Positions 46,138 to 56,803 of a stretch of 64,000 nt of DNA are shown here, one piece after another. A model generated the notes under the pieces. It saw nothing but the letters and a program-made list of their open reading frames with translations. It ran no database searches and was not told the origin of the DNA. The translations under genes were made by a program, and so were the position numbers. The first letter of the stretch is position 1; each line of letters opens with the position of its first letter. Origin of the DNA: Acetobacteraceae bacterium (GTDB taxonomy: Bacteria > Pseudomonadota > Alphaproteobacteria > Acetobacterales > Acetobacteraceae); assembly GCA_965246915.1 (NCBI GenBank), contig CBDFGB010000018.1, positions 11,617 through 75,616 on the forward strand, written 5' to 3'.

Positions 46138-47385
<1,248 letters not shown>

Positions 47386-47464
47386 GCTCGCCCGCTCCGC
47401 TATGCCCGCGGAGAACCTACACCGCGCACACCTGTCCGAGAACGTGCGCCGGCAGCATATTGCG

Positions 47465-47700
47465 GAGTGGGTCAGGTTGACGGACGATGCGGCGCAACCT
47501 GCGCCTCATTGCAAAGCCGGACAGAAGCAATTTCGGCCCAAGTTGGGCCGAAAGGTCGGAGCACCTCGCCGAGTGGGTCAGGCTGACGGAGAAGGTGGCT
47601 CAACTTGAGCCACCTTTGGGAGATCGCCGCGTGGAGCAGGCTGACGGATAAACCGGCGCAACTTTCGCCGATATTCCTAAAGGTTCTGCGCAACCTGCGC
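47465..47700. repeat. three degenerate direct repeats, each followed by a CAAC(Y)T-loop hairpin, plus a 23-bp palindrome
   Basis: The repeats GAGTGGGTCAGGTTGACGGA (47465), GAGTGGGTCAGGCTGACGGA (47571) and GCGTGGAGCAGGCTGACGGA (47629) each contain the dyad GTCAG-N-CTGAC or a near match. Hairpins lie at 47491-47505, 47594-47614 and 47655-47669, and GCGCAACCTGCGC recurs at 47688-47700. The palindrome TTTCGGCCCAA-G-TTGGGCCGAAA is at 47531-47553. Confidence 0.7.
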
Positions 47701-47784
47701 AAAACCCAAAGGGCGGTCGTCCTGGCGTATTCTCCGCTGCCGTCCGTGAACTCGGCATCGAACGAACGAGGCCCAGCGCGCCGT

Positions 47785-48045
47785 CTAAAGGATTTGCAGC
47801 TCGAATCGCGTCGCGCCGGCAACGCCGGAGGCGGGATGATCGACAAGCAGGATGCCTGAGGGCCGCGCGCCGCAGCCTCCGCACCGGAGCCGAGTGACGA
47901 CACGATAGACGGTCTTCGCCGGCGGGAAGCGTCGCAGAGGCAGGGTTCCGGCTCGTTTGCACGCGCATCGGACGTCTAACCAGTAGGCGGATAGGCCGCC
48001 GCATGTGGCCTCCAGTGCGTCAATCGAGGTAGCCGGATGCCCCAT
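47785..48045 (-). CDS. hypothetical Cys-rich small protein (possible zinc ribbon) heading the leftward int-proximal transcript
   Basis: 86-aa ORF with an ATG start and C..C...C.C......C..C spacing (TCGG, CAC, RLRCGGCG). Competing overlapping ORFs exist on both strands. Confidence 0.3.
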   Translation of the reverse strand: MGHPATSIDALEATCGGLSAYWLDVRCACKRAGTLPLRRFPPAKTVYRVVTRLRCGGCGARPSGILLVDHPASGVAGATRFELQIL

Positions 48046-48114
48046 CCCTGGAGCCTAGGGCCGTCGGGGTGAGAGAACAAGACGTGAACGATGTTCATTC
48101 CGGGTAAAGTAGCT

Positions 48115-48221
48115 TGTAGCCCTTTCCACTACAGTTTGGTTCATAGGAGTGTAGCCCTTTCCGCTACCACGTTTTAGTGAAACACCGCGCAGTAGATTAC
48201 GCATCGTCTGTCAGTTATAGT
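48115..48221 (+). promoter_or_regulatory. promoter/operator module of the rightward replication operon
   Basis: Two copies of TGTAGCCCTTTCC(A/G)CTAC lie at 48115 and 48150. They are followed by CACCGCGCAGTAGATT (48183-48198), a 17-nt spacer and TATAGT (48216-48221). The same CACCGCGCAGTAGATT-N17-CATAGT module recurs at 52224-52262. Confidence 0.5.
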
Positions 48222-48254
48222 GTGTCGAACACCACCTGATAGAGAGGCTAGACC

Positions 48255-48872
48255 ATGCTCAACACCATGAGCCATAGCGAGCGCCGGCATGCGAAGCCGG
48301 TCACGAACCATACGCCGGACCAAATCCGATACCTCCGCCAGTCGTTCTCTGACGCGAAGGACGAGCATCTGACCGCGGCGCGATGCGGCCCACACGGCGG
48401 CCCGCCCGCCACGCCCTACGCATGGGCCAAGGAGTGCGTGTATTCGTGGGCAGATGCCCCGTTCACCCGAGCGGCGGATTCGACGACCTACGGCAAGATC
48501 TATACGTGCCCGCTGGCCGGCTCGGTCCAGGCGGATGCCGCGAACCATCAACGCTTCGATGGCCAGCCTGCAGTTGTCGAGACGGTCCCGCTAGGCCGCT
48601 GCGGCGTGACGGGCGCGTGGTGCTGGGGCGATGCGGTCGTGGCGCTGCTGTCCGACGCGAACCTTTGCGACCAGGTCCTCCGGATCGTGGTGCGCCGCGG
48701 CGATCGCCCCGACGCGGGCATCTTCATGAAAGACGGTCGGGTCAGCCGCTTCTGCGCCGACGCGGACCAGCTGCACCTGGACGCGCTCGATGCACAGGGT
48801 CATTGCGCGGAATGGACGTTCGTCGGTGGGGCGGTCCTCGCGGCGTTGGCTCGCGAGTTGGCCGCGTCATGA
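48255..48872 (+). CDS. hypothetical protein (first gene of the rightward operon)
   Basis: AGAGAGG RBS; 205 aa. The stop overlaps the next ATG (ATGA). The antisense alternative is Arg-rich junk. Confidence 0.5.
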   Translation: MLNTMSHSERRHAKPVTNHTPDQIRYLRQSFSDAKDEHLTAARCGPHGGPPATPYAWAKECVYSWADAPFTRAADSTTYGKIYTCPLAGSVQADAANHQRFDGQPAVVETVPLGRCGVTGAWCWGDAVVALLSDANLCDQVLRIVVRRGDRPDAGIFMKDGRVSRFCADADQLHLDALDAQGHCAEWTFVGGAVLAALARELAAS

Positions 48873-50866
48873 GCGGTGCCCCGGCTGTTGCGCGCGCGGC
48901 CGGGGCAACCGTCCTGGAGCGCATGCTTGCCGTTGCGGCGGAAGGCTATCCCGTGTTTCTCGGGCGACTCGTATCCAAGCCGGGCGGCGGGCATGACAAG
49001 AAACCCGCGATGAAAGGTTGGCAGAAGCGCGCCACTCGTGACCCCGAAGCCATCCGGCGCATGTGTGCCGAGTATCCAAACGCGACGTTGATATGCGTCC
49101 GGACTGGCGAGACCTCTGGCATCGATGCAGTCGACGTGGACCCGCGTAGCGGAGGTGACGTCTGGGAGCGAGACAATTTAGATCTCCTACCCACTACGCG
49201 GGTACACAAGACGCTTTCGGGTGGATCGCACTATATCTATCGGCATGCGTCGGGCGTGCATAACACGGCCGGAGCGATCGCGAAGGGAATCGACACGCGC
49301 GGGACAGGCGGATTCATCGTCTGGTGGCCTGTCTGCGGGGGCAGCGTCCGCGTCAATGCTCCGGTATCCGAGTGGCACGAAGACCTTCGCGCTCTTGCCG
49401 TGAGGAAGTCCGAACCAAGCCCCATTTTGGCGCCACTACCATCCGTTGTGACCACGGACGAAGCCCAAGCCATCTTGCAAGACGCATGCATCGTCATGGA
49501 GTGCGCGGCGAGAGGCGAGCGATATGCCGTTGCGACTAAAATAACGTGGGAGCTGGCACCACTCGCCATCCGCGGCGATCTCGACCCAACAGAAGCCGAA
49601 GAAGCGATCGTCGCCGCTGCGGAGGCTGCCGGCGGCGAGGACATGAACAAGGTTCGCGTTCTGTGGCGGGGCGCCCTCGAAAAGCGAGATAAGAAGCCCT
49701 GGATCGAGCCGCCCCCTCCCGAGGAGGACTTTGGCGAAGGCACGGATGGTTCGCCTCTGTCCGGCGATCGCGAACCGGAACCCGTTACCGATGGTCATAA
49801 GCGGGGCAGCATGCTTGATCGCATGCTCTCGCCGGCACAGTGCGAGGACGGTCCGCGGCGGGAGTACATCATCAAGGGGCTAGCCGCGCGTCAAGACTTG
49901 TCCGTCATCTTTGGTCACCCCGGATCGGGCAAAAGCATCATAACGCCGCATATAGCTTACGCGCTCGCGCAAGGTCGCAATGTGTTTGGGCGGCGTACAC
50001 GCCAAGGCCGAGTCCTTTACATCGCTGCTGAAGATTTCCATGGCATGTGCGCGCGGATCACCGCGCTACGGCGAAAGTATGGAGATGCGGAGGACTTCCG
50101 CGTTGTTGGCTGTGGCAATCTGAACGAACAGCGCGAACGGGATGACGTGAAGTCCGCCGTCACTGTGTTCCGACCAATGCTAGTCGTTATAGACACGGTC
50201 GCGACCGGATGGGCGGGCATGGACGAGAATGACAACTCCGATAAGGGAATGGGCGCGGTTGTAGCTTTCGGAAAGGCTCTTACAGCGCTCGGCCCTGCCG
50301 TGATCCTCGTCCACCATCCCGCCAAGAATGGCGACACGCCTCGCGGGGGCTACGTCTTAGAAGGAGCGGCAGATCTAAGCGCGCGACTTGACGTGAAAGA
50401 CGACTCAGGAATCGTACAGGTTTACGCGCTAAAGAACCGTAACGGTGCGTCGATGCAAAACATCATCGACTTCCGCTTTGAAGTCGTCGGTCTCGGGACT
50501 GACGAGGACGGCGACCCGATCACGACGGTCCGGTGTGTCGAGCTAGAGGCGGGCGAGACGGCGAAGCGCAGCAAGAAATTGGCGCCCGCTGCCGCAGCTG
50601 CGTTGCATGAGCTGCGGGCGCTGGCCTTGGACCGCAAAGACGGACGGGTCGCGGAGTCCGAATGGCGGGCCGCCTGCGTCGAAGGGCGTCGGGTTAGCGC
50701 GATGGAAGACGCGGCCAGCCGCGCGAAAGCGTTCACCCGCGCCGTGACGGCCCTAACCCGTAGCGGCATCGTCGGTTCAAGTTCGGGCAACGTCTGGGTT
50801 ATCGAGGGCGCAAGTGCCTCCCTTGCCGATCTCGTCTCGGGATCTCCAGAGGAGGACTTCGCATGA
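48869..50866 (+). CDS. bifunctional Prim-Pol primase/polymerase with C-terminal RecA-like AAA (RepA/AAA_25-type) domain
   Basis: Prim-Pol N-terminus (YPVFL..., IDAVDVDPRSGG, SGGSHYIYR, KGIDTRGTGGFIVWWP). Walker A GHPGSGKS, Walker B LVVIDT, then ILVHHPAKNG. ATG 48869 chosen; the track ORF begins 162 codons earlier in non-protein-like sequence. Confidence 0.85.
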   Translation: MSGAPAVARAAGATVLERMLAVAAEGYPVFLGRLVSKPGGGHDKKPAMKGWQKRATRDPEAIRRMCAEYPNATLICVRTGETSGIDAVDVDPRSGGDVWERDNLDLLPTTRVHKTLSGGSHYIYRHASGVHNTAGAIAKGIDTRGTGGFIVWWPVCGGSVRVNAPVSEWHEDLRALAVRKSEPSPILAPLPSVVTTDEAQAILQDACIVMECAARGERYAVATKITWELAPLAIRGDLDPTEAEEAIVAAAEAAGGEDMNKVRVLWRGALEKRDKKPWIEPPPPEEDFGEGTDGSPLSGDREPEPVTDGHKRGSMLDRMLSPAQCEDGPRREYIIKGLAARQDLSVIFGHPGSGKSIITPHIAYALAQGRNVFGRRTRQGRVLYIAAEDFHGMCARITALRRKYGDAEDFRVVGCGNLNEQRERDDVKSAVTVFRPMLVVIDTVATGWAGMDENDNSDKGMGAVVAFGKALTALGPAVILVHHPAKNGDTPRGGYVLEGAADLSARLDVKDDSGIVQVYALKNRNGASMQNIIDFRFEVVGLGTDEDGDPITTVRCVELEAGETAKRSKKLAPAAAAALHELRALALDRKDGRVAESEWRAACVEGRRVSAMEDAASRAKAFTRAVTALTRSGIVGSSSGNVWVIEGASASLADLVSGSPEEDFA

Positions 50867-52198: not shown

Positions 52199-52262
52199 TG
52201 TAGCGGAAACCACTACGTTACTTCACCGCGCAGTAGATTTTCTTTCGTCTTGACGTCATAGT
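52199..52262 (+). promoter_or_regulatory. promoter/operator module of the head-gene operon (paralogue of 48150-48221)
   Basis: TGTAGCGGAAACCACTAC is the dyad of the 48150 site in inverted orientation. It is followed by CACCGCGCAGTAGATT (52224-52239), a 17-nt spacer and CATAGT (52257-52262), only 6 nt before ATG 52269. Confidence 0.5.

Positions 52263-56759: not shown

Positions 56760-56803
<44 letters not shown>

Follow-up and report, generated by a model that had tools for sequence, protein, structure and literature searches.

We analysed a 64,000-nucleotide stretch of a draft genome of an Acetobacteraceae bacterium (hereafter the window), in which a first-pass annotation had pointed to a short region of repeats and hairpins beside an integrase gene (int). 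The region lies in the 869-bp gap between int and a replicase gene, within a 10.6-kb island at a tRNA-Thr gene, and at 47454-47706 it contains three units of ~57 nt and five palindromes, far above chance. Our analysis indicates with good confidence that 47387-47890 is a dead and rearranged "short-form" ParB-like gene, together with a palindrome that is conserved throughout the family to which this gene belongs.

Cassettes of a broken gene beside int

The coordinates and sequences reported earlier for the repeats, hairpins and palindrome proved to be as described. A repeat search grouped the 57-nt copies at 47454, 47560 and 47618 into one direct-repeat family, confirming the spacings of 106 and 58 nt, with copies 2 and 3 at 75% and 67% identity to copy 1; the best ungapped 54-nt self-match in the gap has 41 of 54 positions identical, compared to a mean of 28.8 and a maximum of 32 in 100 shuffles. 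The segment 47480-47710 (231 nt) also folds unusually well, with z = -5.5 as + strand DNA and z = -4.6 as - strand RNA, and in both cases 0/200 shuffles were as good. The hairpin sites had been placed correctly, but their count changes: instead of three hairpins and two additional elements, we find five palindromes, and GCGCAACCTGCGC is present at 47492 and again at 47688. When the genome (4.02 Mb) was scanned for the two-part helix that characterizes these palindromes (CA-NNN-TG, 4 inner pairs and at least 3/4 outer pairs), 16 matches were obtained, 4 of them within 200 bp in the array.

Three-frame translation confirms that the units read (H/E)(I/L)A(E/A)W(V/S)RLT(D/E)..AQ..P, each in a different frame, and that the mini open reading frames (ORFs) listed for the region exist. 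The 20-bp repeat corresponds to the codons of (H/E)(I/L)A(E/A)W(V/S)RLT(D/E), the helix that follows ParB box III. The differences between the units are of the coding type, since in their own frames they include 3-5 codons that differ only synonymously, against 1 in the wrong frame. The peptides across the gap, each in a different frame, are MPAENLHRAHLSENVRRQHIAEWVRLTDDAAQPAPHCKAGQK; ERSEHLAEWVRLTEKVAQLEPP; LWEIAAWSRLTDKPAQLSP; and GSAQPAQNPKGGRPGVFSAAVRELGIERT, then EAQRAV*. A ParB-like gene of this family is laid out as box III helix, disordered linker, helix-turn-helix (HTH) DNA-binding domain and LDDNQS tail, and DNA homology to the family begins at ~47389. The pieces of the wreck, here called cassettes A to E with palindromes W1 to W5, are the following (numbers with L designate loci of the family):

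47402-47527, + strand, frame 1: cassette A, with box III, AEW helix and palindrome W1, then ..HCKAGQK
47402..47485, + strand, frame 1: coding relic of cassette A, MPAENLHRAHLSENVRRQHIAEWVRLTD, equal to ParB box III and the next helix
47486..47510, centre 47498: palindrome W1, GATGcGGCGCA-ACC-TGCGCCtCATT, two-part helix kept; type L088, L031, L054
~47527-47556, frame 0: cassette B, palindrome W2 with only ~10 nt of flank on either side
47531..47553, centre 47542: palindrome W2, TTTCGGCCCAAGTTGGGCCGAAA, perfect (11+1+11), read in frame 0 as ISAQVGPK; type L042
47547-47621, frame 2: cassette C, ERSEH-AEW helix and palindrome W3
47547..47591, + strand, frame 2: coding relic of cassette C, AERSEHLAEWVRLTE, 81% to L090 over 75 nt
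47592..47616, centre 47604: palindrome W3, AAGGTGGCTCAACTTGAGCCACCTT, perfect (12+1+12); type L090, L055
47614-47673, frame 0: cassette D, LWEIA joined to AWSRLTD, then palindrome W4
47614..47649, + strand, frame 0: coding relic of cassette D, LWEIA^AWSRLTD
47650..47674, centre 47662: palindrome W4, decayed, the invariant G of CA..TG changed to T and the outer stem broken; type L076, L045
from 47679, frame 2: cassette E, palindrome W5, then HTH and tail
47682..47706, centre 47694: palindrome W5, GGTTcTGCGCA-ACC-TGCGCAaAACC, two-part helix kept; type L078, L079
47712..47876, + strand: relic of HTH and C-terminal tail, GGRPGVFSAAVRELGIERT in frame 2, EAQRAV*RI in frame 1 (TAA), RIAS in frame 2, TPEAG* in frame 1 and DDRQAGCLRAARRS in frame 2

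Box III and the helix after it are present, as 47411-47485 reads ENLHRAHLSENVRRQHIAEWVRLTD, which aligns with ENLQRADLNPIEEAEGYKRLVDE of a solved ParB. The relic starts at box III (~47389), and the ParB_N domain with its GxxRxxA box is absent. No intact ORF remains: the cassettes lie in three frames, and the open stretch in frame 2 has no start codon. Relative to the family frame, the tail carries a minimum of four frameshifts plus two stop codons (TAA, TGA); the HTH survives as a frameshifted trace only (AAVRELGIERT | EAQRAV*), while at the DNA level 47724-47785 is still 75-90% identical to many family loci. The coding capacity of the wreck is gone. That no DNA-binding regulator gene is recognisable here (the first-pass annotation named repressor, Cro and excisionase) is true only because the gene is broken, and box III, a trace of the HTH and the C-terminal tail can still be made out in the wreck. 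The GTCAG-N-CTGAC dyad in the repeat, which the first-pass annotation had pointed out, is indeed present, but it is a by-product of the codons for W-V-R-L-T; it is absent from the homologues, and we rejected it as a functional site.

The protein family and its linker palindrome

The read-through peptide matches proteins with the pattern WEIAENLHRAELT..ER.EHIAEWVRLTE..(S)AQ(L/V)AP..GGINAA.RELGIERTEAQRAVKIA..PEAK, which in turn match PHROG "ParB-like partition protein" profiles, in the middle part of these long profiles. Among the full-length relatives (260-330 residues), 4/5 pass Pfam ParB_N (PF02195) with E = 1e-8 to 6e-6; the remaining one, L044, scores 18.0 bits, under the gathering score of 26.3. 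By sequence, the full-length relatives match solved ParB, Noc and sulfiredoxin, with ENLHRAEL..AEWARLAEE of the relatives aligned to ENLQRADL..AEGYKRLVDE of the solved ParB. The AlphaFold2 model of L110 has a mean confidence (predicted local distance difference test, pLDDT) of 87 and superposes on Noc, ParB and KorB over N-domain and HTH (~215 columns), with template-modelling (TM) scores of 0.55-0.72 and a Foldseek probability of 1.00 against Noc 7nfu; the ~20 residues that connect the AEW helix to the HTH form a low-confidence linker, with a pLDDT of ~63 at residues 131-151. The family belongs to the ParB/Noc/KorB superfamily. Its N-terminal GxHRLEA box (AG.HRLEA) is found in only ~10/56 sites, the others being short forms that start from box III, or fragments. 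The short forms are, or were, real proteins, since the ratio of nonsynonymous to synonymous substitution rates in pairs of them is 0.18-0.31. An intact member of the family was not found in this genome.

We compared 74 loci that encode relatives (Acetobacteraceae, Methylocystis, Methylobacterium, Stellaceae and others; cultured hosts include Pararoseomonas baculiformis SSH11, Siculibacillus lacustris SA-279 and Methylocystis rosea SV97) and eight IMG/VR contigs. In 49/56 sites a palindrome lies 7-30 nt downstream of AEW[VI]RLT, that is, in the DNA for the disordered linker that joins the ParB N-domain to the HTH. Its core is usually GGCGCAA-S-TTGCGCC, with a covarying outer stem; overall, it has an invariant CA-NNN-TG apex, a GC-rich inner stem of 7 bp and an outer stem of 4-7 bp that covaries freely. 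The 49 sequences were aligned on their palindrome centres; the inner pairs had been partly selected by the search, the outer pairs had not. CA..TG is present in 49/49 (d2-d3 are invariant), and d4-d7, conserved to 80-94% and always symmetric, are Watson-Crick pairs in 48-49/49, with changes compensated (GGCGCAA, GGCCCAA, GGCTCAA, GCGTCAA, GTCGCAA and others). A third of the palindromes have a mismatch at position 8, d9-12 are paired in 39-43/49 with 3-4 pair types each, and pairing past position 14 is at background level. The covariation score is 0.56, compared to 0.126 ± 0.016 for shuffled data (0/500) and 0.06-0.15 when the partner was slid. The first-pass annotation was right that the hairpins are a conserved cis feature, and the outcome it had named as refuting, a lack of conservation in relatives, did not arise, because the hairpin is conserved in related genes.

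It is the DNA and not the peptide that is conserved, because two or more frames are used to read the palindrome, G·U is not tolerated and a rare CAA codon is forced. In 38 sites it is read in frame 0 (..SAQVAPK..) and in 10 in frame 1 (..GATCAG..), and the Gln in the palindrome is encoded by CAA in 32/36 cases, compared to 42% CAA for the other Gln codons of the same ORFs. The unpaired cells (GT 4, AC 4, other 24) occur in random proportions, and CAA/CAG synonymy accounts for the sole G·T excess, which is found at d1. From the alignment, this lack of G·U tolerance points to pairing or symmetry at the DNA level, and not to an RNA helix.

These observations bear directly on the proposal that the hairpins are RNA elements, either attenuators or processing sites in a long leftward leader of int, or small RNAs. 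The position upstream of int, the good folding of the - strand RNA (z = -4.6) and a terminator-like site on the - strand (47553-47531) would fit such a role, and the palindromes would fold in the transcripts of either strand. However, over the 49 homologues the G·U pairs expected of RNA are lacking and the types of unpaired cells are in random proportions, no Rfam family other than tRNA was matched, no promoter-like sites were found in 47200-48500, and in the homologues the palindrome is part of coding sequence, in many different surroundings, and not of int leaders. We regard an RNA element as very improbable. The wider suggestion of an operator, attenuator or small-RNA module found no direct support, with neither an Rfam match nor promoter-like sites; and an operator array for lysis-lysogeny control is not borne out either, as no repressor or Cro gene is present, 47200-48500 offers no promoter-like sites, and the repeats are coding relics.

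Other explanations for a conserved palindrome at this position were tried and rejected. Programmed frameshifting lacks a conserved slippery site ahead of the palindrome, intrinsic terminators would require a T-run that does not follow the stems in the family, and a sigma-54 promoter would need a GG-GC spacing of 12 in place of the 10 seen. A test for dispersed repeats of the repetitive extragenic palindromic (REP), miniature inverted-repeat transposable element (MITE) or Rickettsia palindromic element (RPE) kind was negative: GCNCAANTTGNGC occurs 4 times in the 4-Mb genome, 2 of them here. A mobile palindrome was likewise rejected, as other genomes hold 0-5 copies of the core, which is the control level, clustered in ParB-like loci of this one gene family; a complete 60-kb provirus has one copy. 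No paper containing these palindrome sequences was found in the collection searched, and the conserved linker palindrome is apparently undescribed.

Distant ParB-like genes with other HTHs also carry a palindrome at the same linker position, as in phage POA1180 (CGACAACTTGTCG). In the Mu-like Sinorhizobium phage Aussie (L118), nt 402-428 of the ParB-like gene form ATCGAAGGGCACCGAGTGCCCTTCGAT, a perfect palindrome (12+3+12) whose place in the linker is the same but whose apex sequence differs. A second ParB-like relic of the genome lies outside the window, on contig C17 (49502-49830; L006, L144). It belongs to another HTH subfamily (..GEWVRLTAEK.., ..EKSRQVGDSTSDRFTADTAAKTGQSERVVQRDA..) and has a CAACTTG-centred palindrome at C17:49791, GAGTCGCCAACTTGGCGACTC, with an IS-like (insertion sequence) fragment adjacent to it.

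In phages, the gene is found in early or replication modules; in Mvi-Yong1342-1 it adjoins a "replication protein", and in Mu-like phages it sits between Ner and transposase A. Neighbours in the fetched loci include AAA_25 helicases, VapE, integrases and tail genes. A tRNA is located within 3.4 kb of the locus in 25/66 genomic loci, and in 25/25 of these its 3' end points toward the locus, which places the ParB-like gene near the ends of tRNA-integrated elements. In 10 cases among loci L042-L107 the gene ends less than 1 kb from the tRNA, leaving no room for an integrase; such relics are thus often the innermost survivors at tRNA attachment (att) sites. One locus, L054, has the same order as the window: tRNA, int, short ParB-like gene.

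Origin of the stack and its island setting

Each cassette in the window is closer to a different family locus (81-93% over 42-75 nt) than to its sister units (67-75%); the W1 cassette, for example, is 93% identical to L088 over 42 nt (blastn), and the W4 cassette 85% to L076 over 46 nt. With moderate confidence, given the short stretches compared, the five cassettes seem to resemble five different types of the family. The joins between them are out of frame and fall at short direct repeats (ATCGCCG, microhomologies); in cassette D, a deletion between two ATCGCCG repeats fused box III to the AEW helix. The earlier suggestion of a triplicated small gene in decay holds as far as coding debris is concerned, but not as a simple triplication: the units look like cassettes of different types that recombination has stacked. 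Similar stacks, with junctions at ATCGCCGAG or GGAGGAGAAG, are present at L089, L141, L094, L060, L080, L042 and L064; ATCGCCGAG occurs three times in the gene, at WEIAEN, HIAEW and KIA. Isolated palindromes without coding flanks are found at L140 and L094. In-frame tandem duplications of the AEW helix plus palindrome are also seen, in L079 (4058-4250), L089 (4000-4340) and L141 (1880-2200), with junctions at ATCGCCGAG or GGAGGAGAAG; they give ORFs with two or three palindromes.

We suggest that the ParB-like gene was originally the first rightward gene beside int in the tRNA-Thr island. Homologous ParB-like genes of elements meeting at this locus, as tRNA att sites would gather them, may then have recombined unequally or illegitimately at short repeats to give the stack, a process that the hairpin-prone palindromes probably promoted. 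On this account the array in the window is likely to be inert debris, and the window feature itself is rated as ordinary gene debris.

Several points weigh against this view. The matches of cassettes to family types rest on stretches of 42-75 nt. Four of the five palindromes (W1, W2, W3 and W5, not W4) keep the full two-part helix, despite two stops and four or more frame changes in the tail. That palindromes survive in dead copies, at L140 and L094 as well, hints at selection on a DNA element and at some residual function of the array. Finally, no close relative of the island was found: searches with the replicase or the integrase gave no sister island in genome or viral contig collections, the best relatives being 38-39% identical, differently organised and without a ParB-like motif nearby; a DNA search with the 869-bp gap in 60 relatives gave only a chance 33-nt match in an AMP-ligase gene; and the read-through peptide, compared with plasmids and phages by tblastn, gave no match at E = 1e-3.

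The survival of the palindromes could also mean that the gene is dead while its five palindrome types are selected as a multi-specific docking or loading array for ParB-like proteins. Cytidine triphosphate (CTP) clamps of helper phages would load here and slide, thereby activating int or the replication operon at a distance of 400-700 bp, or they would be titrated. KorB and BisD are ParB-fold clamps that load and slide, acting at a distance. Consistent with such an array, four of five palindromes keep the two-part helix within a wrecked gene, their types differ, as several partners would predict, and other relics likewise contain perfect palindromes, stacked or on their own; the island resembles a capsid-encoding satellite that depends on a helper, and in a genome that has no cognate protein any partner must be external. 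Yet binding to the array is a hypothetical extension from these clamps, W4 has decayed, and the junctions resemble accidental microhomology recombination. Recent acquisition or hairpin-templated self-correction could explain why the palindromes survive, no sister island in which the array is conserved was found, and the lack of indels in four palindromes is not significant at the indel rate of the tail (rough P ~0.1). We consider a selected array unlikely.

We give hardly any credence to an artefact, be it a chimera assembled from several prophage ParB-like genes or a patch of errors that arose in sequencing next to GC-rich hairpins. The genome is admittedly a draft of 33 contigs, and in some genomes the family is multi-copy and contigs break there. 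The junctions, however, share too few bases for a join in a k-mer graph, the region is interior to an 84-kb contig, between int and the replicase gene, and similar stacks occur in independent assemblies, including complete chromosomes of metagenome-assembled genomes (MAGs) as well as isolates; moreover, the defects extend to the large-scale order of cassettes, beyond base errors.

The surroundings of the debris in the island are as follows:

46138..46209, + strand: tRNA-Thr(UGU) (ARAGORN, Rfam)
46167-46210: attL core, with an identical 44-bp attR core at 56760-56803 (exact repeat)
46144..47385, - strand: tyrosine integrase (Pfam Phage_integrase, E = 2.8e-16), head-to-head with the relic
48115..48221, + strand: two GTAGC-N7-GCTAC dyad repeats and a promoter-like cassette, outside the relic; the cassette recurs at 52224-52262
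48383-50866: Prim-Pol/AAA_25 replicase (Pfam domains)

The island also encodes an HK97-type capsid gene. At 48115-48221, two 18-nt direct repeats, TGTAGCCCTTTCC(A/G)CTAC, each contain the dyad and are followed by the promoter-like cassette CACCGCGCAGTAGATT..TCGTC..(T/C)ATAGT, whose second copy (52224-52262) lies upstream of the capsid operon. This is likely the real control region of the island and its rightward operons. A 205-residue ORF (48255-48872) overlaps, in another frame, the first 160 codons of the 827-residue Prim-Pol/AAA_25 ORF; the Prim-Pol domain of the latter begins only at residue 182, which leaves room for another true start or for a separate small upstream gene. The 86-residue - strand ORF at 47785-48045 was considered as a small regulator and rejected, as it has no Pfam or PHROG match and overlaps the tail of the relic; it is probably spurious in this GC-rich DNA.

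Possible roles of the palindrome and known systems

By analogy with parS, the Noc-binding site (NBS) and the KorB operator OB, we tentatively favour, for intact genes, a role of the palindrome as the cognate site at which the ParB/Noc/KorB-fold protein docks or loads, inside the gene that encodes it. In favour of this, the 15-bp palindrome resembles KorB OB in its central S, its half-site is conserved, and each phage has one copy, placed in the gene of the presumed binder; in length and half-site it has what a docking site would be expected to have, a palindrome of 13-16 bp with a conserved half-site. On the other side of the balance, docking by an HTH dimer leaves unexplained why outer arms of up to 15 bp vary and yet stay complementary, and near-identical HTHs occur with different inner arms (GTCCCAA, GTCGCAA, GGCGCAA); no clear co-variation between HTH and site was seen in 30 sequences.

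Such features leave room for a role of the palindrome through its structure, as a DNA hairpin or cruciform that would serve as a hot spot of recombination or module exchange, or as a replication site in the gene (priming, origin), the stacks being its footprints. The outer arms covary with all four bases and up to 15 bp, by Watson-Crick pairing only, an AT-rich apex sits between GC-rich arms, and rearrangements cluster around the palindrome in many loci. Replication genes are often beside the gene (AAA_25, VapE, Prim-Pol, "replication protein"), palindromes occupy the same linker position with different HTHs (POA1180, Aussie, the C17 relic), and co-variation of HTH and site is not visible. But the invariant CA..TG and the ~80-90% conserved GGCGCAA half-site suggest recognition of sequence, and intact genes have one copy and no iterons. 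Compared with an iteron origin, the window has five palindromes and intact genes one, with replication genes often nearby; Mu-like relatives, which replicate by transposition, contradict a general origin role, as some retain the linker palindrome. We rank a structure-specific element second, as possible without being probable.

If docking is nevertheless taken as the role, a bolder picture can be drawn, in which the palindrome is the loading site of widespread, undescribed phage ParB-like CTP clamps and the five-type array a multi-specific sensor or decoy that couples the island to helper infection; this we think distinctly improbable.

With this analysis the supposed lysis-lysogeny switch is removed: most of the int-proximal "control region" consists of a dead gene, and the real control signals probably lie ~400 bp to its right. 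What emerges is a ParB-like gene family of alphaproteobacterial phages and islands that carries, in its linker DNA and across reading frames, a palindrome maintained at the DNA level, and this palindrome persists in wrecked genes, in which cassettes of differing type accumulate beside tRNA att sites. Should the palindrome be a docking site, it would provide a ready protein-site pair for non-partition ParB-fold clamps in phages; should it be a structure-specific element, it would mark a recombination hot spot that shuffles protein domains.

Among known systems, ParB, Noc and KorB are the closest in protein architecture: intact homologues share with them ParB_N with a GxxRxxA-type box, box III and the HTH, and the model superposes on them. 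Their sites are palindromic as well, with 16 bp for parS, 14 bp for NBS and 13 bp for OB (TTTAGCSGCTAAA); the conserved inner palindrome here, with 15 bp, resembles OB in its single central S. In B. subtilis, one parS is found within spo0J, and the candidate site here is also inside the gene of its own protein. Here, however, a disordered linker of 15-30 residues is inserted between N-domain and HTH, with the palindrome exactly there, and the arms reach 15 bp and covary in a hairpin-like manner, unlike in parS, NBS and OB. In addition, the CTP-binding N-domain is missing from most genomic copies, which are short forms; no ParA partner accompanies the gene, each provirus has one site, and the copy in the window is a pseudogene.

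The origin of phage lambda lies within the linker-coding part of gene O, thus inside the initiator gene, and consists of four iterons and an AT-rich region. Similar to it, the present palindrome is a DNA element in the flexible-linker DNA of a DNA-binding early protein, with discrete allelic types in related phages and replication genes nearby; in contrast to lambda, intact genes have one palindrome and the Mu-like relatives need no origin. Rickettsia palindromic elements and REP sequences resemble it in that palindromic DNA is tolerated in frame within alphaproteobacterial coding genes. Unlike them, the palindrome is not dispersed, with 0-5 copies per genome, and is always at the same position of the gene family, which argues that it is ancestral to the family and not a mobile insert.

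Lastly, the window resembles other cases where relics are stacked at tRNA hot spots through tandem accretion and decay of islands and prophages: the relic lies in a tRNA-Thr island beside int, 25/25 nearby tRNAs face their loci with the 3' end, and the pieces resemble different donors. It differs from plain decay at such hot spots in that what survives is grouped around a single small cassette with a palindrome and that palindromes stay intact, a pattern that decay by itself does not predict.

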